The notes beneath the pieces were generated by a model, which ran no database searches, was not told the origin of the DNA, and saw only the letters and a program-made list of their open reading frames with translations. A stretch of 64,000 nt of DNA from a bacterium (GTDB lineage: Bacteria; UBA8248), in contig CBDBBI010000010.1 in the NCBI GenBank assembly GCA_965202625.1, positions 2,304,001-2,368,000 on the forward strand, given 5' to 3'. The position numbers and the translations under genes were made by a program. Position 1 is the stretch's first letter; every line of letters starts with the position of its first letter. This document shows, piece after piece, positions 24,779 to 33,714 of the stretch.

Positions 24779-27700
24779 TTACGCTCCCGCCTCCAGAACC
24801 AGGGGCGGCAAGCCCTCCACGATATCGACGGTCTCCAGGCTCACCGTGATCACCTTTTGTATCAGTCGAACGACGTAGCGCGGCGCGTCCGGGCGATTCG
24901 CGTCGTTGACGATGCCGCTTCGCCCGTCCGTCTTCACGCGATATTGATCGATTATCCATTCCAGTGCCGAGCGGTTTCCCAGCCGGTAGCCGAACGCCCT
25001 GGGCGGTATTCCGCCCAGAGTGAGGAAATCGTTGTAGCGGATTTTGGTTTTGTCTCTGGAGAGCTTCATCTTCTCGACGCGCAGGTCAAGCGCCAAGCCC
25101 GGCGTTTCGATGAAGTCCAGGGGATGCTCCGGCTGATCTTCGTAGCCGACGTGGATTTCCGCCAGGCGCCCCCCCGCTTGGGCGAACGCCCGGAAATCCC
25201 GCGCACAGGGGATGCGCGGCAGGTCCCGCTTGAGGTCGCGCGCGTATCGTTCCCGATAATCGGGAGAATGGAGCAGACCATAGACGTAATGGAACACGTC
25301 CCGTTTCGTGATCGCGTCGTCCTTGTAGTGTGCGCGGAATGACGCCAACGCCCCGTCGGTGACGTTCTCCCGACGCTGCGTCCCGTCCTCGGCGTAGGTG
25401 TAGAAGGGGAAAGATTGTTGTGGATCTGCATAAAAATTCAAATCAGGAATTAATGCGCTCATCAAAATAGCAAATTCTTTTCGGCCGTAGCCACCTATAC
25501 AGATCACCCGATTTTCCGTTTCAGTCTCTGGCGTGGGAAAGATGGAAGGAAATCCGCATACCCTTTGATTCATCAGCCTGTCGAAATAAAGGTTCGATTT
25601 CGTGAATGGGCGATAGAGGGACGTCCTCGCCTTTTCCGGTGAGAAATCAATGGATTTTCCTCTTTTCAGTTCTAGCTTCAGCCTGTCGGTCCATTTGATC
25701 TTCTGATCATCATACGCCACGAAATCATCGACGCTCGCGTTCCGACGTTCGCGCCGCTCCCATTGGAACGCCTGCGCATTGTAGAACCCGATCATCCGCT
25801 TCATGTTCTCCATGAGCGCGTCCCGGCGAAAATTATACGCCCACGCATCGCGGTTCGTGCTGACGCCCAGGCTGTAGGTCTTGAAAATCACGTCCTCCGC
25901 CGCACCCCGCACCGCCTTCGCTTTCTTGGTCCCCAACGGAACGAAGGTCTCGAACTCCGCGCGGAGCCCTTCCGTGAGCCACGTATGCCGCACGTCCGGC
26001 TCAAGGACGCGCCAGTCCACGTTGCCGACGTGTTCGCGTTCGTTCAGAAAATCGAATTTCCGCTTTTTATTCCACAGATCGTCCGCCTGATGGTAGAAGA
26101 TGCGCGCCCTCTCCTTTGGCTTGCGCTTCGTCTTCACGAACAGGTTGACGCTCACGCCCACCCGAATGTCGAATACGTTGGAACCGGAAACCTTCACGCC
26201 CTTGCGCGCGTTTCCGCCCAGGTCGAGAACGTAGATAGCGTCGAAATCCTCCACCAGATGCTTGCGCATTCCGTCAAACGCAACGCCGTCGAGAAAGCCG
26301 TTGTTCGTCACGAACGCGACAATTCCCTCCTCCCCGATGCGGTCCGACGCCCAGCGCATCGCCTTCACGTATGGATCGTAGAGTTTGTTTCGGAGCGTCG
26401 CCCTGGAGCTTTCGGCGTAGGTCTCCGCCACCCGCCCGTCCATCGCCTCGTATTTGCGGTTCTTGTTGTTGTCGTTCTCGTTCACCTGTCCCATGTTGTA
26501 GGGCGGATTGCCGATGACGACGAACATCGGCGTTTCCTTCTGCCGCTTCACACGTGCCGCGTTCTCTTCCGTGAACATGGCCAGCTGCCGCTCCTCCGCC
26601 AGCTCGAAGGTGTCCGCCAGGCATATCCCGTGAAACGGGGCGTATCTCCCCGTCGCCTCATAGTAGGCGTGCTCGACGTTCATGGAGGCGACGTAGTAGG
26701 GCAGGAGCATCACCTCGTTGCAGTACAGGGCGGCCTCGTATTTCTCCTCGAGTGCGATGCGGGGAATCTCCCGCATGACGCGCACCATGAAGTTTCCCGT
26801 TCCGACGAACGGGTCGATGACGCACACGCCGGCGTCCGCCAGCGAGCGGCCGAACTCGGCCTCCAGGAGGTGGGCGACGCTTCGCACCATGAAATCGACG
26901 ATCGGCTGCGGGGTATAGACGACCCCGTGCGTGTCGGCGATCTGGATCGAGAAGCCCTGGAAAAACTGCTCGTAGACGGTGTTCAGAAAGTGCTGCTTCT
27001 GCGAGAAATCGCCAATCGTCCGCGCCGTCCCCTCGATGGCGACGTAGAAGCGGTCGAGGCTTCTGAAAAAATTATCGCGGCTGAACGCGTGCTCCGTGAG
27101 TGCGGAGATGACCTTTTCGATCTCCTGGGCGATGACGTTGCGGCGGACGAAGTCGGGGTTGTCGAACACGGTGCGGAAGAGCCGCTCGGTCAGAAGGTGC
27201 TGGACGAGCATCTCCTCCACGGCCTCCTCTGCGAGGCGGGGGTTGATGGAGGAGCGGCACTTCTCCAGAAAGCCCGCAAACGCGGCGGTGAACCTGGGGT
27301 TGGTCTGGCGTTCGTTCCGTATCAACTTCGCCAGGCCGCACCCGACGTCGGGTACCTTGTCCTTGAACCGGGCGACCGCCTCCTCCCATTCGGCGATGTT
27401 CGGCGGGCGATGCGAAAAGAAAGTCTGGAGCGCATCGACCAGCTGCGCACTGTCCGTCAAATCCGCGTCGAGAACGCATTCGTCGTTCTGCCAGAGGAGT
27501 GCCCTTTTCGGCGTCTGGAACAAGATGTTGCTTCGGGGATAGCCCGCCTGGAACTTGCTCTGGACTGCGGCGGGCAGGTCGTCGTGGACGTCCTTCGCCT
27601 CCCAGAACCCGTGCGTCAGGTTGAAATCGTCCACCAGCGCGCCATCGACGGCGATGCGCCTGTTCCTCGGAAGGGCGATGGAATGCTCGGGGACGAGCTT

Positions 27701-27853
27701 CCAGCGGAATTGCCGCGCACACGATTCCAGCAGCGACTGAAACGCCGAGCGCACCGCGGTTTCATGCGTGACGCCGAGCCGCTCGAACTGGGCGAGGGAA
27801 TCATAATACGCCCGGACGGGCTTGCGCGTGGGCTTGATGTCAAGGACGGGCAC
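24779..27853 (-). CDS. Single-chain restriction-modification enzyme: nuclease + N6-adenine MTase + Type ISP-like specificity domain
   Basis: DG..GFWEAKD nuclease motif, GVVYTP, DPFVGTG, GNPPY, LYRPFTK, GNRSALEWIIDQY; GTG start. Confidence 0.88.
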   Translation of the reverse strand: MPVLDIKPTRKPVRAYYDSLAQFERLGVTHETAVRSAFQSLLESCARQFRWKLVPEHSIALPRNRRIAVDGALVDDFNLTHGFWEAKDVHDDLPAAVQSKFQAGYPRSNILFQTPKRALLWQNDECVLDADLTDSAQLVDALQTFFSHRPPNIAEWEEAVARFKDKVPDVGCGLAKLIRNERQTNPRFTAAFAGFLEKCRSSINPRLAEEAVEEMLVQHLLTERLFRTVFDNPDFVRRNVIAQEIEKVISALTEHAFSRDNFFRSLDRFYVAIEGTARTIGDFSQKQHFLNTVYEQFFQGFSIQIADTHGVVYTPQPIVDFMVRSVAHLLEAEFGRSLADAGVCVIDPFVGTGNFMVRVMREIPRIALEEKYEAALYCNEVMLLPYYVASMNVEHAYYEATGRYAPFHGICLADTFELAEERQLAMFTEENAARVKRQKETPMFVVIGNPPYNMGQVNENDNNKNRKYEAMDGRVAETYAESSRATLRNKLYDPYVKAMRWASDRIGEEGIVAFVTNNGFLDGVAFDGMRKHLVEDFDAIYVLDLGGNARKGVKVSGSNVFDIRVGVSVNLFVKTKRKPKERARIFYHQADDLWNKKRKFDFLNEREHVGNVDWRVLEPDVRHTWLTEGLRAEFETFVPLGTKKAKAVRGAAEDVIFKTYSLGVSTNRDAWAYNFRRDALMENMKRMIGFYNAQAFQWERRERRNASVDDFVAYDDQKIKWTDRLKLELKRGKSIDFSPEKARTSLYRPFTKSNLYFDRLMNQRVCGFPSIFPTPETETENRVICIGGYGRKEFAILMSALIPDLNFYADPQQSFPFYTYAEDGTQRRENVTDGALASFRAHYKDDAITKRDVFHYVYGLLHSPDYRERYARDLKRDLPRIPCARDFRAFAQAGGRLAEIHVGYEDQPEHPLDFIETPGLALDLRVEKMKLSRDKTKIRYNDFLTLGGIPPRAFGYRLGNRSALEWIIDQYRVKTDGRSGIVNDANRPDAPRYVVRLIQKVITVSLETVDIVEGLPPLVLEAGA

Positions 27854-27881
27854 GTCGTTCTCCCGGCACTCCTTCCATCGC

Positions 27882-28280
27882 CTAGACGTCCTCCACGAGT
27901 TCCCATAGCGTGCCCATCGTGCTCTTCGGCTGAATGAAGGCGATGAGATGCCCGCCAAAGCCGGGCCTTGACTTCTCGTCTATGAGCGCGAAGCCCTGGG
28001 CTTTCAAATCGGCCAGAACGCCGTCGATGTTCTTCACGTCAAACGCCACGTGGTGGATGCCCTCGCCGTGCTCTGCGATGAATTTGGCGAGGTTCGTCCC
28101 CTCCTTGCGGGGCGAGATGGGTTCGATGAGGTCGCCGCCCAAATCCAGCATGGCGAGATCGGTCGCCCCGTCGGCGGAAGTCTCCCGCGCGAGCAATTTC
28201 GCGCCCATGCCCTCATAGAGGGCGATGGCGGCGTCCATGTCCTTCACCGCCACCCCGATGTGATGCACCTTGTTGAACAT
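27882..28280 (-). CDS. Methylmalonyl-CoA epimerase-like VOC protein
   Basis: VHHIGVAV, GEGIHHVAF, IAFIQPKSTMGTLWELVE. Confidence 0.85.
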   Translation of the reverse strand: MFNKVHHIGVAVKDMDAAIALYEGMGAKLLARETSADGATDLAMLDLGGDLIEPISPRKEGTNLAKFIAEHGEGIHHVAFDVKNIDGVLADLKAQGFALIDEKSRPGFGGHLIAFIQPKSTMGTLWELVEDV

Positions 28281-28455
28281 GTCCGCATTCCTCCTCAAGC
28301 CTTCAAAAAATCGACGCGCCATCCTGCCGCGCCGCATTCTATCACCAACGCCCGCGCTTCTCATTGCGCGAAACTATACTTGCGCGCGCGTTTGTCATAT
28401 CCTGAGTGCGTCTCGCAGGCGTCAAGCGAACTACGTCACCCACAAGGAGAAAACC

Positions 28456-29016
28456 ATGGAAGGCCCCATTGACGGACACACCACGTCCACCGTCCCCGGC
28501 GAGCGCGTCATCGACAAACCCGAACTCCCCCCCAAGGGACTCTACACGGATCATATCGTCGACACCGAGATGGTGGAGGGCTCCCTGCAGCTCAAGCGCG
28601 GCAAGGCCGGAGCGTATGAGATATTCTGCGACGAGGGTGCGCACATCGGAGGGACGGCGAAATATCCCTCGCCGATGGCCTACCTGGCGATGGCGACGGG
28701 GTTCTGACTGCTCACCCAGGTGTCGCGGTACGCGCACATGATGAAACTCGCCGTCAAGGGGGCGAGCGTCTCGGTTCGGTTTCGGAAAATTCTGGGCGGC
28801 TCCGTCCTCAAGGGCACGGTGTTCAACAAGTGGGAGGGCGTGGACACGCACCTGTGCGTGGAATCGGACGCACCGAAAGAGAAGCTCGCCCACCTCATCA
28901 AGAACGCCAAGAACGGATGCTTCGCCGAGGGCCTCATCACCCAGCCGGTACCCTTGCACTCCACCGTGGAGGTGAACGGCGCGCCTTTCCCCATCGAGGG
29001 GGTGACGACCGACTAG
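28456..29016 (+). CDS. OsmC-like protein, probable selenoprotein (UGA at 28705-28707, Sec84)
   Basis: PSPMAYLAMATGF-TGA-LLTQVSRYA continues in frame to AKNGCFAE; RBS AAGGAG; hairpin follows the TGA. Confidence 0.85.
28720..28737 (+). promoter_or_regulatory. Candidate SECIS hairpin
   Basis: GTG-T-CGCG-GTA-CGCG-CAC starting at +13 after TGA; bulged U, G-first loop. Confidence 0.65.
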
Positions 29017-29135
29017 ACTCCGGCCGCCGCCTCGCCCCACGAAGCCGAGGCGATGCGGCGGGCCGAAGTCCCTGCCGAAGCGCGCTTATGGAGAAACAGA
29101 CGGGGGAGCCGGAACAAGAACCTGCGGCTGGTTTT

Positions 29136-29386
29136 TCACCCATATCTTGCCTCTATCGCCGGCAATGAAATGATAGGCGGTGAGAACGTCCTGTTGATGT
29201 GAATTCTATTCGTCGTCAGGGGATGTTCCAGGCTGGGCGGCTGATATTGCACCGGCTCCTCTTCCTTGTGAGTCGGCAATTCGTAAAGCCTGCTCACTTC
29301 CACGTATTGCTGATACTGCTTTTTCACCTCTTCCAACGTCGCCATGTAATCATCGGAGATTTTTCTTTCTTGTTTTTTTGAGACAT
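29136..29386 (-). CDS. Small AT-rich hypothetical protein; RBS-linked ATG is out of frame at an A7 run
   Basis: AGGAGG-AAACC-ATG TCT CAA AAA AAC; the long frame (…DDYMATLEEVKKQYQQY…) is -1 relative to it. Confidence 0.35.
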
Positions 29387-29713
29387 GGTTTCCTCCTTTC
29401 TCTTTCTCCTTTCCCATATTCAAGATAAGTCTCACATACCGCACAGGCAAAATCCAGGGTTCTGCACCTTGAGATGAAGCGATCATCATCCTTTTATCGA
29501 TCCCCCCAAGCCTGCGCACAGGAGGCTTTCTGCCGCGTCTTCGGCGTTTTCATCCAGCTCTGCTCGGGTCGGTCAAGCGCAAAACGTTTCCGTATGCCGA
29601 CGTCTTCCGAAAAACGACCGCAATCGCCCGTTCCCCCATTCCGGAGAACTGCTGTAGAATGGCACCCTCGACGTTTGCAAAAAGAAGCAGCCCCCATTCT
29701 GGATGGAGTTCTC

Positions 29714-30166
29714 ATGGAATACTTCGACGCATCAGAAGACGTCTCTTTCGGCTCGCAGCCCGCCCTTGAGGACCTCAAGGCACTCGCCGCCAGAGGAGTC
29801 GCGACCATCATCAACACCCGCTTTCCGGACGAGGAGCAGGGCGCCCTTCCGCCGGCGCGCGCCAGAACCGAGGCCGAAGCCCTGGGGATGCGATACCTCA
29901 ACATTCCCGTCTCGCCCGTAGAGTTCAGCGAGGATTCGCTCGCCGAGGTGGGCCGGGCACTGCGCGAGGCGAAAGCCCACGGCCCCGCCTTCGTCCACTG
30001 AAAGGCGACGGGGCGGGCCGGGATTTGCTCGCTGCATCATCTGGCGGATGAAGAGGACTGGACGGGAGAGGAGATGGAAAAGGCGGCGGACGCCACCGGC
30101 TACAACTGGCGCGAAGCGCGGCTCGCCGAGAAATTTCGGGAGTTTTTCGCCAGGCGGAGGAGATAA
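29714..30166 (+). CDS. DUF442/Blh (TIGR01244-like) sulfurtransferase/phosphatase-fold protein, probable selenoprotein (UGA at 29999-30001, Sec96)
   Basis: QP..EDL..LA..GV.TIINTRFPDE, YLNIPV, then PAFVH-TGA-KATGRAG (family HCxSGxR); 54 further sense codons to TAA 30166. Confidence 0.82.
30012..30033 (+). promoter_or_regulatory. Candidate SECIS hairpin
   Basis: GGCGGGC-CGGGATTT-GCTCGCT, 7-bp stem starting at +11 after TGA. Confidence 0.55.
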
Positions 30167-30368
30167 GCCCTTCCGGCGCGCAAGAAACGAAGCCTGCCTT
30201 CTCAAAATTTCCGCGCGACGTCCGCCCGGGCACCGCACGCAAAGGCGACCGGCGGAGGGATACAGAGCCTCCCACCCGGTCTATGCAAGAGCGTTTCCGA
30301 AGGGGAGCATTGCGTGCAAGCGCGCCGACTGGCGCCGGCGGACGAACGGAAGCAAAACTTCCGTCCCT

Positions 30369-31856
30369 TCAGGTGCTGGCCCGCCGCCGCCTCCCCCGGC
30401 GGAAGATGCCGTCGTAGAACGTGAACAGGGAGACGCAGAGCAGCACGGTTCCGACGGGGCTTGCGAGGAAGGACCAGAACGGCTTGTTCTCGAAGGTGAT
30501 CAGCGCGCGGCGCAGGTTCTCATCCGCCAGGGAGCCCAGAATGACGGCCAGAACCATGGGCGCCAGCGGAAGGCCAAGGCTGCGAAAAACGTAGCCGGCG
30601 AACCCCGCAGCCAGCATGACGTAGACGTCGAACATGCTCAGGCGCACCGCATACGCCCCCAGAATACATATGGGGATGATGATGGGCATCAGCAGGGTGC
30701 GCGGCAGGCTGTAGAGCTTGATCGCCGGCTTCACCAGCAGGAGACCGAACACGTACATCAGGAAGTTCGCCACGACGAGTGCCCCGTAGATGAAGTAGAT
30801 CAGCCCGGGGTTCTCGATGTTGATGGTGGGGCCCATCACCACGTGCTTGAGCTCAAGAGCGGCCATGAAGGCGGCGGCGGGCGGACTGCCCGGAATCCCC
30901 AGCGTGAGCGTGGGAAGGATGGTTCCGCCGATGCAGGCGTTGTTCGCCACCTCCCCGCACACGATGCCCTCGTAGCTCCCCTTGCCGAATTTCGCGCGTT
31001 CCTCGGGGCTGGCCCGGCGCTTGCCCACGTCGTAGGCGACGAAGGCGGCGATGTTTCCGCCCGCTCCGGGAATGGCGCCTATCACCGTGCCGATGATTCC
31101 CGAGCGCACCGAGGAGCGCGCGTAGCGCCACAGCATGGTGAAGGGGGGCACCACCCGGCCCACCTTCTCGGGAATCGCGGGCGGCTCTCGCTGCGGCAGC
31201 ACCCAGAGCACCTCGGTGAGTCCGAAAAAGCCGATGATCACCGGAATATAGCTGATGCCGTCCTCCAGGAGCACGCTCCCGAAGGTGAAGCGCGGGACGC
31301 CGTATATGTTGTCGAGCCCCACGTAGGCGATGAGAAGCCCCAGCCAGCCCGATATCCAGCCCTTGATGGGCGTCTCGCCCGAGGTGAGCGTTCCGCAGAT
31401 GGCGATTCCCCACAGGGCGAGGAGGAACATCTCCCAGGAGCGAAACTGCAAAGCGATGAACAGGACGAGGGGAATGAACGCCACCAGGAGCAGGATGCCC
31501 ACCCAGTTTCCGAGAAAAGAAGCCACCAGGGCGGTGCCGAGCGCCAGACCGCCCTCTCCCCTTTGGGCGAGGGGATACCCCTCGATCATCGTGGGAACGG
31601 CGGCGGGCGTGCCGGGAATGTTGATGAGCACCGCGGTGATCGAACCGCCAAAGACGCTCGCCGTATACACCCCCAGCAGGAACATGATGGCCACGTCCTG
31701 GCTCATCTGGGTGGAAAGGCCGATGAGCAGCACCATGGACATGGTCGTCGAGATGCCCGGCATCGAACCCCACAGCAACCCCAGTATCGTGCCCAGAATA
31801 CAGACGAGCACCAGATACGGGTTTAATGCGTAGATGAGCTGCTCTATGAAAAACAT
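30369..31856 (-). CDS. tctA: Tripartite tricarboxylate transporter large permease
   Basis: INIPGTPAA, EVANNA, LTLGIPGS; many TM helices. Confidence 0.92.
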   Translation of the reverse strand: MFFIEQLIYALNPYLVLVCILGTILGLLWGSMPGISTTMSMVLLIGLSTQMSQDVAIMFLLGVYTASVFGGSITAVLINIPGTPAAVPTMIEGYPLAQRGEGGLALGTALVASFLGNWVGILLLVAFIPLVLFIALQFRSWEMFLLALWGIAICGTLTSGETPIKGWISGWLGLLIAYVGLDNIYGVPRFTFGSVLLEDGISYIPVIIGFFGLTEVLWVLPQREPPAIPEKVGRVVPPFTMLWRYARSSVRSGIIGTVIGAIPGAGGNIAAFVAYDVGKRRASPEERAKFGKGSYEGIVCGEVANNACIGGTILPTLTLGIPGSPPAAAFMAALELKHVVMGPTINIENPGLIYFIYGALVVANFLMYVFGLLLVKPAIKLYSLPRTLLMPIIIPICILGAYAVRLSMFDVYVMLAAGFAGYVFRSLGLPLAPMVLAVILGSLADENLRRALITFENKPFWSFLASPVGTVLLCVSLFTFYDGIFRRGRRRRAST

Positions 31857-31859
31857 GGG

Positions 31860-32459
31860 CTATCCCGAACCCGGCAGAGGAATCCTGAACCCGTAGCGAA
31901 ACGCTGCGGCCAGAACGAGCGTGGAAATTGCGGCGACGAGAAGGCACCGCATAAAGGACTTCGGCCAGAAGATGCGCAGCACGATCGCCAGGGCGGGGAT
32001 GGTGACGGCCTCAAAGCTGCTGAAGCCGAACCGCCAGCCCGCAACCCCCAGCGGAATTGCGACGTCGAACGTCACCCAGTCGATGAGAAGCACGTAAAGG
32101 ACCGCCAGCCCCATCAGGATGAGTGCCCACTGGTTCTCATAATCGCCAAAATAGCCGCGCAGCAATTCTCCGGGAGAGAAGCCCGCCCCCGTCCAGGCGC
32201 CCTTTTTGAGGGCGCTCACTCCGAGGCCGACCGCCATCACCAGCAAACTCAAGCCCGTGAGAAAGGGCATGAAGCCCGGTGCGGTGAAGACGTTCGCCTC
32301 CGGATTGGGCATGCGCAGCCCCAGAATGATGGCGAGAACGGCAACGGCTCCCACAACGCCTGCCGCCGCCAGGTCCTTTCTCGCCCCGGCTGGGTCTCCC
32401 CCCTCCGCAGGCTTTGCGGGAAGAGGGGTCTTGCGGTCATCGTCGTTTGAGGAAACCAT
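31860..32459 (-). CDS. tctB: TctB-like small permease
   Basis: About four TM helices, APGFMP, FRIPLP C-terminus; between tctC and tctA. Confidence 0.7.
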   Translation of the reverse strand: MVSSNDDDRKTPLPAKPAEGGDPAGARKDLAAAGVVGAVAVLAIILGLRMPNPEANVFTAPGFMPFLTGLSLLVMAVGLGVSALKKGAWTGAGFSPGELLRGYFGDYENQWALILMGLAVLYVLLIDWVTFDVAIPLGVAGWRFGFSSFEAVTIPALAIVLRIFWPKSFMRCLLVAAISTLVLAAAFRYGFRIPLPGSG

Positions 32460-32565
32460 GCGATTATTCCGGCGTATATCGAGACCAAGGAAACCCGCCT
32501 GCTTCGGGCGCGTCGTCTCATCTTTTGAGCGGGGCACCCGAAGCAGACGCTGCGCGAAAAGCCGC

Positions 32566-33714
32566 CTAGCTCATGCGCGGCGTATAGCCTTTGGGCGGCC
32601 ACCAGGCGTCGAAATCCTTCGGAGCGGGAAGCCCGAGTTCCTCGGGCCCGCGCACCTTTTTGCCGATGTGCTTTTGCAGCTTGAGCAGGGTGGTGGCACT
32701 CAGGCTCTCCAGCTGCGCGGCGCGGCGATCGGCGTCCGCGCCCACGCGAATGTCGCTCTGGAAATACTTGCGCTTCGCGATCTTCGTGAAAGCGTCGGAC
32801 TTCGCAGCGGCGATCCAGGCGGGCTTGATCTTGTTGAGCGCCTCGACCGGCGTCTGCCGCCGCACCGCGATGCTGTAGGTTCCCCCCATGGGCGTCAGCG
32901 CCTTGAGGGCGGGTATGTAGTTGGCCACGGTATACGCCTTTCCGTAGTCGGGAATGTCCAGATCCTCCGGGCCCGTTTGCATGAGGTTTCTCAGTTTGCC
33001 CGCCCGGAAGAACTCGACGTGCTCATGCACGCCGCCGCCGGCGATGTCCACCTCGCCCTGCAGGCCGGCGACGGTCGCCGGCTTTCCGCCCTTGTAGGGG
33101 ACGAAGCGCAGCTCGATTCCCGCCGCGTCAGCGACGATGGCGCCCACCTCGTGCCAGATGCTGCCTACGCCCGACGTCGATATGGTGATCTGGCCGGATT
33201 TCTTCTTGGCCGCGGCTATCACGTCCTCAAAAGTCTTGAAGGGAGAGTCCGGACGCACCGACCAGCTCGCGAGCGAGGTCGCCGCCGCGAAATGCTGCCA
33301 GTCCATCCACGCCGCCGAATCCGCGTATCCCATCGGCCGGACGAACTTGTTGTAGTTCGCCGCTCCCAGCCACGTGTAGCCATCCGCCGCCTTGTTGAGC
33401 ACGTAGCGGGTAGCCACGCCGCCGACCGACCCCGGGCGGTTGATGGCGTTTATGGCCCAGCCGGTCGAGCGCGCCATCTCTCCCACGAGGGTGCGGATGA
33501 CGGTGTCCGTGCCGCCGCCCGCCGAATACATGACGACGGTGGTGATGGGACGCGCGGGCCAGCCGGCGGCACCCGCCTTGCGCGTCGTGAACGCGAGCGG
33601 TACTGCCGCCGCCGCACCCGCCGCACCGAGGGTTCGAATGAAGCTTCGGCGCGTGATGTGGGATGATTCGGGAACGATGATTCCCGAATCGTCCGGGGGT
33701 GTGTTTCTGGACAT
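32566..33714 (-). CDS. tctC: TctC/Bug substrate-binding protein with Tat signal
   Basis: TRRSFI twin-arginine motif, WPARPIT..SAGGGTD, VPYKGG. Confidence 0.9.
   Translation of the reverse strand: MSRNTPPDDSGIIVPESSHITRRSFIRTLGAAGAAAAVPLAFTTRKAGAAGWPARPITTVVMYSAGGGTDTVIRTLVGEMARSTGWAINAINRPGSVGGVATRYVLNKAADGYTWLGAANYNKFVRPMGYADSAAWMDWQHFAAATSLASWSVRPDSPFKTFEDVIAAAKKKSGQITISTSGVGSIWHEVGAIVADAAGIELRFVPYKGGKPATVAGLQGEVDIAGGGVHEHVEFFRAGKLRNLMQTGPEDLDIPDYGKAYTVANYIPALKALTPMGGTYSIAVRRQTPVEALNKIKPAWIAAAKSDAFTKIAKRKYFQSDIRVGADADRRAAQLESLSATTLLKLQKHIGKKVRGPEELGLPAPKDFDAWWPPKGYTPRMS

Follow-up and report, generated by a model that had tools for sequence, protein, structure and literature searches.

A putative selenocysteine-containing protein of the DUF442 family, encoded through an in-frame UGA codon in a bacterium of the UBA8248 lineage

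The gene described here lies in a stretch of 64,000 nucleotides (the window: positions 2,304,001 to 2,368,000 of the forward strand of contig CBDBBI010000010.1, NCBI GenBank assembly GCA_965202625.1) from a bacterium of the GTDB lineage Bacteria; UBA8248. It encodes a protein of the DUF442 family (PF04273) and contains at codon 96 an in-frame UGA, which is very probably decoded as selenocysteine (Sec, U). On balance, the best explanation of the results is that the product is a genuine selenoprotein acting in sulfane-sulfur transfer.

The reading frame

When TGA is read as U, the frame between positions 29714 and 30166 of the plus strand gives a product of 150 residues, in which codon 96 is the sole in-frame TGA (GPAFVH-U-KATGRAGICSL) and is followed by 54 further codons and a TAA stop. 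The same frame is closed at 30001 by translation table 11, which yields an open reading frame (ORF) at 29474..30001 of 175 amino acids. An earlier note on this DNA had described a frame that halts at AFVH-TGA and yet runs on for 54 codons to complete a protein of 150 residues, and the translation agrees with it. The upstream start at 29474 was considered and rejected: in relatives, a gene for an OsmC-like protein ends 22-25 nucleotides (nt) before the ATG equivalent to 29714, and M1 is invariant. The same ATG start, along with U at residue 96, was found in every relative extracted. Chance is excluded as an explanation of the continued frame, because the matches to PF04273 and TIGR01244 both span the TGA and the TGA is conserved across the phylum. 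A scan of 28300-30450 for promoters and terminators gave nothing decisive. An index lookup in four metatranscriptome runs from a single study detected 27-41% of the words sampled from 28400-30300, a figure that is not evidence of expression.

Conservation of the UGA codon and its pairing with cysteine

The conservation of the UGA codon was followed by a stop-tolerant search of 51 genomes of the phylum, a small and uncultured one; these were metagenome-assembled genomes (MAGs) publicly labelled Nitrospinota, Nitrospinaceae, Candidatus Tectomicrobia or "bacterium". The search gave 59 matches, 56 of which contain exactly one TGA and span residues 1-146 or more. This result and the residues invariant after the TGA (R101, A102, G103, C105, S106, L107 and W132) show that the downstream frame is conserved, a condition on which the earlier note had made its interpretation depend. 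The three exceptions are a match with two TGA codons, a C-terminal contig-edge fragment short of residue 96 and a distant exported Cys homologue. Of the 51 genomes, 35 contain a TGA form, and every one of these is a member of the window's own family, which is represented by 42 genomes; in the other seven the gene was not found. No TGA form was found in the nine genomes of the phylum's other three families. Two clades can be distinguished, orthologues that are 64-83% identical to the window protein and paralogues with 38-51% identity to it; between the clades, identity is only 38-50%. The extracted Sec proteins all have U96 and share the motif [HY]-U-x4-R-A-G-[IVL]-C-S-L, Y95 being present in one further relative outside the 20 aligned sequences in which H95 is invariant. 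Moreover, a peptide-pattern scan of 185,579 species genomes, blind to codon 96, returned 41 loci, all labelled as the same lineage. A TGA and not a Cys codon was present in 78 of 78 motif hits (44 distinct 66-nt sequences; loci reached by two routes are counted twice), and U96 was also found in two more loci that the motif had not captured.

A profile search of 1.84 billion representative proteins found 7494 relatives at E<=1e-3, and the column counts given throughout come from the best 149 of these. The column aligned to U96 holds Cys in 134 of them, Ser in 6, Asp in 2, Gly in 1 and a gap in 6, four of the gaps being gene calls that end in ..VH. The H-C-x4-R motif is present in 127. Two further claims of the earlier note, that DUF442 proteins use an H-C-x4-R loop and that Sec takes the position of its nucleophile, are thus supported by these columns. 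At the column of Trp132, which is invariant in all Sec forms, 29 of the 149 Cys-type relatives have Cys (motif GF[ED]C), and for some members of the Cys-type subfamily this second cysteine may be of importance.

The relation between the Sec and Cys forms was addressed with a quick tree (SH-aLRT support) of 118 rows. It comprised 31 Sec forms, retained from 50 after those more than 90% alike had been dropped, and 87 stand-alone Cys forms of 140-175 amino acids with H-C-x4-R; fusions, truncations and forms lacking H-C-x4-R were excluded. All Sec rows cluster in a single group of 33 (support 85) that also includes P0048 and the long-branch P0179; this is compatible with a single origin of Sec but does not demonstrate it. 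P0048 (HCKAIGRAGVCSF) is the closest full-length Cys form; it retains Cys105 and nests among the Sec forms, a placement that would fit a recent change from Sec to Cys. A metagenome scan with P0048 gave only two loci, both of them unrelated integrase-like frames matched through one peptide pattern. A separate observation concerns P0112, a singleton DUF442 fragment of 94 amino acids that ends in ..GPVFVH at the catalytic position, is only distantly like both clades and stands without relatives in the protein collection; possibly it represents a third Sec clade. Among 120 matches listed of 152 to the exported Cys-type DUF442 protein of genome G049, no relative cut at the catalytic position was found (the four shortest were checked).

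The opposite interpretation, in which the TGA ends a product of 95 residues or the gene is a decaying pseudogene, is most improbable. It would agree with the state of the public protein predictions, since all 46 that were found are short or broken (45 end at residue 95, and the remaining one, with 112 residues, appears to be frameshifted), and with two relatives that look decayed, a paralogue in genome G009 with a second TGA and a paralogue remnant with a TAA in the window genome. However, a product of 95 residues would, according to the structural model, miss the catalytic loop and three helices, and the frame of the 54 codons behind the TGA is preserved in two clades with identities of 38-83%. 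In addition, the TGA is aligned with Cys, the hairpin described below is frozen at synonymous sites, and the Sec machinery of the genome is complete. In the G009 paralogue (L047; G009:C5:285343-286389, minus), the second TGA replaces Trp132 and the 3' arm of the hairpin carries a base change; this copy probably represents a pseudogene or reflects an error in sequencing. The paralogue of the window genome itself (L029:1501-1773; G000:C10:131447-131719) seems to have decayed to a remnant: it is 33% identical, is interrupted in frame by a TAA and lacks an open frame. It adjoins a transglutaminase-like ORF (L029:485-1495), the gene that flanks the intact paralogues in relatives.

A hairpin within the coding sequence

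A hairpin resembling the bacterial selenocysteine insertion sequence (bSECIS) is predicted within the coding sequence. It starts 10 nt past the UGA, and its stem is formed by positions 14-20 and 29-35, numbered from the U of UGA. The same 7-bp stem with the loop CGGGRUYU was predicted in 24 of 24 diverse sequences, and the sole variation was in one pair, which is GU in 14 and AU in 10. The consensus bSECIS, as given in the available text of a May 2026 review (PMC13188914), has a loop of 3-9 nt, a stem of 4-16 bp, a G in the first two loop positions, a spacing of 16-37 nt and a minimum free energy of -7.5 kcal/mol or lower. The present hairpin agrees with all four published constraints, with a loop of 8 nt, a stem of 7 bp, a G at loop position 2 and a UGA-to-loop spacing of 17 nt, and the consensus fold has an energy of -11.1 kcal/mol.

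Codon usage over this region was unusually uniform. In 50 distinct coding sequences the codon entropy was zero for G100 (GGG), A102 (GCC), G103 (GGG), C105 (TGC) and S106 (TCG), whereas codons for Gly, Ala and Pro residues of equal conservation in other parts of the gene had entropies of 0.8-1.7 bits. Arg101 was encoded by CGG or CGA only, each of which pairs with U31. The TGC of Cys105 contributes two stem pairs to the hairpin, and Cys occupies the corresponding column in only 6 of the 149 Cys-type relatives. Judged from these alignments, Cys105 may act as a resolving cysteine, or it may owe its presence to the constraint on the RNA. The invariant GRAG[IV]CS coincides with the hairpin, and therefore caution is advisable in calling Cys105 catalytic without a test. 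The way in which a SECIS inside a coding region can shape the protein sequence is seen here with unusual clarity.

Selenocysteine machinery and stop-codon usage

The window genome contains tRNA-Sec (75.8 bits), selB (361), selA (565) and selD (333), all scoring above curated cut-offs. The selD gene (L093; G000:C10:1611050-1612009, minus) has one in-frame TGA, and the selenophosphate synthetase of this genome is itself a selenoprotein. TGA is also the commonest ordinary stop in the window, where it closes 15 of 29 long non-overlapping frames. A global reassignment of TGA was rejected on the grounds of this usage and of selA and selB, which are free of internal stops. According to the available text of the BSepDB paper, MAGs labelled GTDB UBA8248 have 48-54 known selenoprotein genes and are among the ten richest bacteria. 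Judging by their labels, these MAGs probably come from the lineage to which the window belongs.

In vitro, rhodaneses are able to carry selenium, and Sec96 might likewise bind selenide as a perselenide (Se-Se) or a selenotrisulfide-like adduct and deliver it to SelD. The richness of the lineage in selenoproteins would suit such a role, and the in vivo selenium donor for SelD is called unresolved in the available text of the review (PMC13188914). A role as selenium carrier is nevertheless very unlikely, given that the gene is linked neither to selD (about 720 kb away) nor to selB and selA (about 64-67 kb away) and was not found in the seven genomes of its own family noted above.

Fold and family membership

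The protein matches PF04273 (BLH_phosphatase, formerly DUF442) over residues 7-102 with 46.5 bits against a cut-off of 26.1, which makes it a member of this family. NF040641, the model of Blh (DUF442 joined to an ETHE1-type dioxygenase), gave 52.8 bits against a cut-off of 625 and was matched only at profile positions 4-130 of 423; by this comparison no dioxygenase domain is present in the 150 residues. The rhodanese domain PF00581 gave no match at E<=1, the models PTP-NADK, PTP-SAK, Y_phosphatase3 and Tc-R-P all remained below the Pfam cut-offs, and NCBIfam holds no dedicated model for a Sec-containing DUF442 protein. An AlphaFold2 model built from 20 sequences had a mean pLDDT (the program's per-residue confidence) of 79.9 and consisted of alternating strands and helices, with U96 placed right after strand 92-95. 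The best Foldseek matches in the PDB were the DUF442 structures 2f46 (1.7e-6) and 3gxh, at a probability of 1.00, followed by TpbA and several dual-specificity phosphatases (DSP). Among solved proteins, 2f46 (3.4e-9) and 3gxg (1.3e-6) were also the best profile matches. The PF04273 score and these top fold matches confirm the family named in the earlier note. From its sequence, the product would be a cytoplasmic, single-domain member of the DUF442/PF04273 branch with the fold of protein tyrosine phosphatases (PTP) and DSP.

The fold itself raises the question of whether the protein is a P-loop enzyme acting on phospho- or arseno-esters, in other words, a PTP-fold phosphatase for proteins or small molecules, or an arsenate reductase of that fold, that would use Sec as its nucleophile. 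Tk-PTP and PTPMT1 are found next to TpbA and the DSP among the structural matches, the sub-threshold Pfam matches fall on DSP-PTPase families, and the entry 2f46, a solved DUF442 protein, bears the title of a putative phosphatase. Catalogued selenoproteins also include arsenate reductases of the Sec type with other folds (PMC13188914). However, the C-x5-R(S/T) signature of classical phosphatases is absent. In all Sec forms and in 127 of the 149 relatives, the loop is C/U-x4-R, one residue shorter. Bordo and Bork reportedly described the shorter loop in 2002 as the geometry of the rhodanese type, which is specific for sulfur. Fusions in the family involve rhodanese and metallo-beta-lactamase-fold domains instead of kinases or ars genes, and the characterised DUF442 domains are sulfurtransferases, as far as the available texts on them describe. 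An esterase or reductase of this kind is consequently a distinctly unlikely reading.

Proposed function

Sulfane-sulfur transfer is preferred because the characterised Cys-type DUF442 domains are sulfurtransferases and because of the fusions seen among close Cys relatives. The isolated DUF442 domain of Xylella Blh is described as moving sulfane sulfur from thiosulfate to cyanide or glutathione (PMC5823870). The DUF442 domain of the sulfide:quinone reductase (SQR) of Cupriavidus is described as a rhodanese with active-site Cys94, which limits cellular sulfane sulfur and stimulates persulfide dioxygenase (PMC9163753). Within the available text of both papers, the activity that the earlier note had ascribed to Cys-type DUF442 proteins is therefore confirmed. 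Among the close Cys relatives, P0054 combines Lactamase_B, two rhodanese domains and DUF442, P0051 combines two rhodanese domains and DUF442, and P0103 combines Lactamase_B and DUF442. When the window genome was searched with P0054, the DUF442 gene was the best match (33% identity), and two metallo-beta-lactamase-fold ORFs (32%) and rhodanese-domain ORFs were found elsewhere.

In the proposed mechanism, SelB and tRNA-Sec would decode UGA-96 under the direction of the hairpin inside the coding sequence, and Sec96 would stand in for the catalytic Cys of the H-C-x4-R loop. The selenolate would attack the sulfane sulfur of a persulfide, a polysulfide or thiosulfate, and the resulting Se-S adduct of the enzyme would be held by the loop amides and Arg101. 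The sulfur would then be handed to a thiol or to sulfite as acceptor. By analogy with the Cys-type domains, transfer through such an adduct on Sec96 has roughly an even chance of being correct. The role that the earlier note put forward, as a carrier of selenosulfide or selenium, would be plausible.

Several observations weigh against this interpretation. The match to TIGR01244 (46.8 bits over residues 7-132) is below the cut-off of 85.85, so that by the NCBI rule the protein is a relative and not a member. Its identity to solved DUF442 proteins is only about 20%, the Foldseek TM scores are 0.57-0.60, and the modelled active-site loop is poor, with pLDDT below 50 at residues 99-102. Support for the hairpin comes from invariance and a single GU/AU switch, because no compensatory double change was found at any of the seven stem pairs in the 24 sequences; moreover, the single-sequence fold was no better than shuffles (z = -0.24). 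The invariance of Cys105 could stem from the RNA hairpin without any catalytic role. No gene for SQR, persulfide dioxygenase or rhodanese adjoins the gene, whose neighbours are OsmC-like, glyoxalase-fold and TctABC genes, and hence the role in sulfur metabolism depends on distant homology and on fusions in other organisms. Finally, the case for Sec is built on comparative evidence, not on chemistry or proteomics.

Genomic neighbourhood

The coordinates of the gene, its elements and its nearest neighbour are collected in Table 1.

Table 1. Features of the Sec-containing DUF442 locus, in window coordinates
Feature	Position	Strand	Details
Putative Sec-containing DUF442 (PF04273) coding sequence	29714..30166	+	150 aa; TAA stop at 30164-30166
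UGA codon 96, proposed Sec, putative catalytic nucleophile of the H-U-x4-R loop	29999..30001	+	TGA conserved; Cys in the aligned column
Active-site loop H95-U96-K-A-T-G-R101	29996..30016	+	H95, U96 and R101 invariant in 20 aligned sequences
bSECIS-like hairpin within the coding sequence	30012..30033	+	7-bp stem 30012-30018 / 30027-30033; 8-nt loop CGGGAUUU at 30019-30026
Cys105 codon TGC	30026..30028	+	In 3' arm of hairpin; TGC in 50 of 50 coding sequences; invariant in all Sec forms
OsmC-like selenoprotein gene	28456..29016	+	In-frame TGA at 28705-28707, motif ATGF-U-LLT; PF02566; NF041052 165.8 bits, cut-off 95
Spacer between the two selenoprotein genes	29017..29713	.	697 nt; single copy in the window genome (G000)

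The OsmC-like gene, with its own conserved TGA in the motif MATGF-U-LLTQ, immediately precedes the DUF442 gene, in the same orientation, in 15 of 18 orthologous loci. The gap between the two genes is 22-25 nt in 11 loci, 71-73 nt in two and 205 nt in one, and it is longest in the window. In most relatives the DUF442 gene is predicted to be co-transcribed with the OsmC-like selenoprotein gene, which suggests, if weakly, that the pair probably serves one stress or detoxification task directed at reactive sulfur or peroxide species. In the window, table 11 splits the OsmC-like gene into two ORFs, and the spacer contains an ORF on the minus strand (29136-29519, 127 aa) that has no Pfam match.

The close pairing of the two genes also permits a different reading, in which the DUF442 protein is the redox partner of the OsmC-like selenoprotein. 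A Sec96/Cys105 selenenylsulfide cycle would then re-reduce the OsmC-like peroxidase or act as a second trap for peroxides or electrophiles, and the PTP fold would be only a scaffold. This would agree with the gap of as little as 22 nt and with Cys105, which is invariant in the Sec forms and rare in their Cys-type relatives, and most catalogued selenoproteins are redox proteins according to the available text of the review (PMC13188914). On the other hand, the OsmC-like gene is missing at three of the 18 orthologous loci, and the paralogous Sec clade has no OsmC neighbour at all; its genes are found behind a transglutaminase-like (SirB1-like) gene and facing ilvD. The pairing of the Cys105 codon within the SECIS stem means that RNA constraint alone suffices to explain its conservation, and we know of no DUF442 protein that serves as a reductant of OsmC. 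A partnership of this redox type is thus considered unlikely.

A combination of these possibilities can be imagined, in which the OsmC-like and DUF442 proteins form a two-selenol relay. The P-loop selenolate would carry sulfur or selenium as a Se-S or Se-Se adduct, and it would feed SelD or recycle the selenoperoxidase. Such a relay is quite unlikely; if true, it would show for the first time that selenocysteine chemistry takes place on a P-loop of the phosphatase type, and it would offer one possible identity for the physiological selenium donor.

The remaining neighbours are of other kinds. A glyoxalase-fold gene is located upstream of the OsmC-like gene in divergent orientation. Downstream, on the minus strand, lies an operon for a tripartite tricarboxylate transporter (30369-33714; TctA, a putative TctB and TctC), of which Pfam matches confirm TctA and TctC; a twin-arginine translocation (TAT) signal is present in the latter. 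A further ORF on the minus strand (24779-27958, 1059 aa) includes the stretch GNPPYN, which we take to resemble the motif of N6-adenine DNA methyltransferases, and the ORF may presumably encode a large enzyme of the restriction-modification type.

Novelty and significance

The earlier note had supposed that this fold is not commonly listed among selenoprotein families, and the comparison with catalogues is in line with that: neither PF04273, TIGR01244 and DUF442 nor any phosphatase-fold entry occurs among the 119 prokaryotic families and subfamilies in Table 1 of the review (PMC13188914). A full-text literature search gave no paper tying DUF442, PF04273, TIGR01244 or COG3453 to a selenoprotein or to selenocysteine. 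The available text of the GOS, Olavius-symbiont, deep-Sep and BSepDB papers does not mention a Sec-containing DUF442 family, a statement that does not extend to the BSepDB family list (Table S2). The sole name found on the public protein calls is "sulfur transferase domain-containing protein". It is well supported that the gene encodes a selenoprotein whose fold has so far not been catalogued for this class. As such it is a Sec version, new to a known enzyme family, that is decoded in the usual bacterial way.

The protein would add to the catalogue a selenoprotein family of the PTP/DSP (DUF442) fold. The systematic truncation of its genes by gene callers (45 of 46 calls) means that selenoproteome counts of this selenoprotein-rich lineage are too low. 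Together with P0048, which stands within the Sec clade, and with thousands of Cys relatives, the Sec forms offer a natural Sec/Cys pair for testing the benefit of selenium to a sulfane-sulfur carrier. New bacterial selenoprotein families are still regularly reported, and the present one therefore extends a known phenomenon and does not establish a new principle. It is of solid specialist interest and leaves current concepts unchanged.

Comparison with known systems

The Cys-type DUF442 proteins, namely the N-terminal domain of Xylella and Agrobacterium Blh and the SQR domain of Cupriavidus pinatubonensis, belong to the same Pfam family as the window protein and have H-C/U-x4-R at the same position. 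Cys94 of the SQR domain, identified as the active site in the available text of its description, corresponds to U96. The N-terminal motifs FG.QP, N.R and IPV are shared as well. In contrast to the Blh and SQR domains, the window protein has a putative Sec nucleophile, encoded by UGA with a coding-region SECIS. It is also a stand-alone protein of 150 amino acids without a dioxygenase or SQR domain, and it scores below the cut-offs of TIGR01244 and NF040641. Moreover, it has an extra cysteine without variation, Cys105, and is not surrounded by genes of sulfide oxidation.

Among solved structures, those closest in sequence and fold are NMA1982 of Neisseria meningitidis (2f46), the Shewanella DUF442 protein (3gxg/3gxh) and Pseudomonas TpbA (4r0s). 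All of them are Cys enzymes with about 17-20% identity, TpbA being a C-x5-R phosphatase. The OsmC-related (seleno)protein NF041052, a catalogued selenoprotein with a U-x-x-T motif, has an unrelated fold and is thus a neighbour and not a relative. The rhodanese-like selenoproteins (PF00581 forms 1-5 of the 2026 catalogue) are likewise of the sulfurtransferase type, with Sec in place of the catalytic Cys of a short loop, and in the available texts they are reported from selenoprotein-rich anaerobes and symbionts (PMC13188914; Olavius symbiont paper). They differ from the window protein in fold and family, since the structural neighbours of the latter have the PTP/DSP fold.

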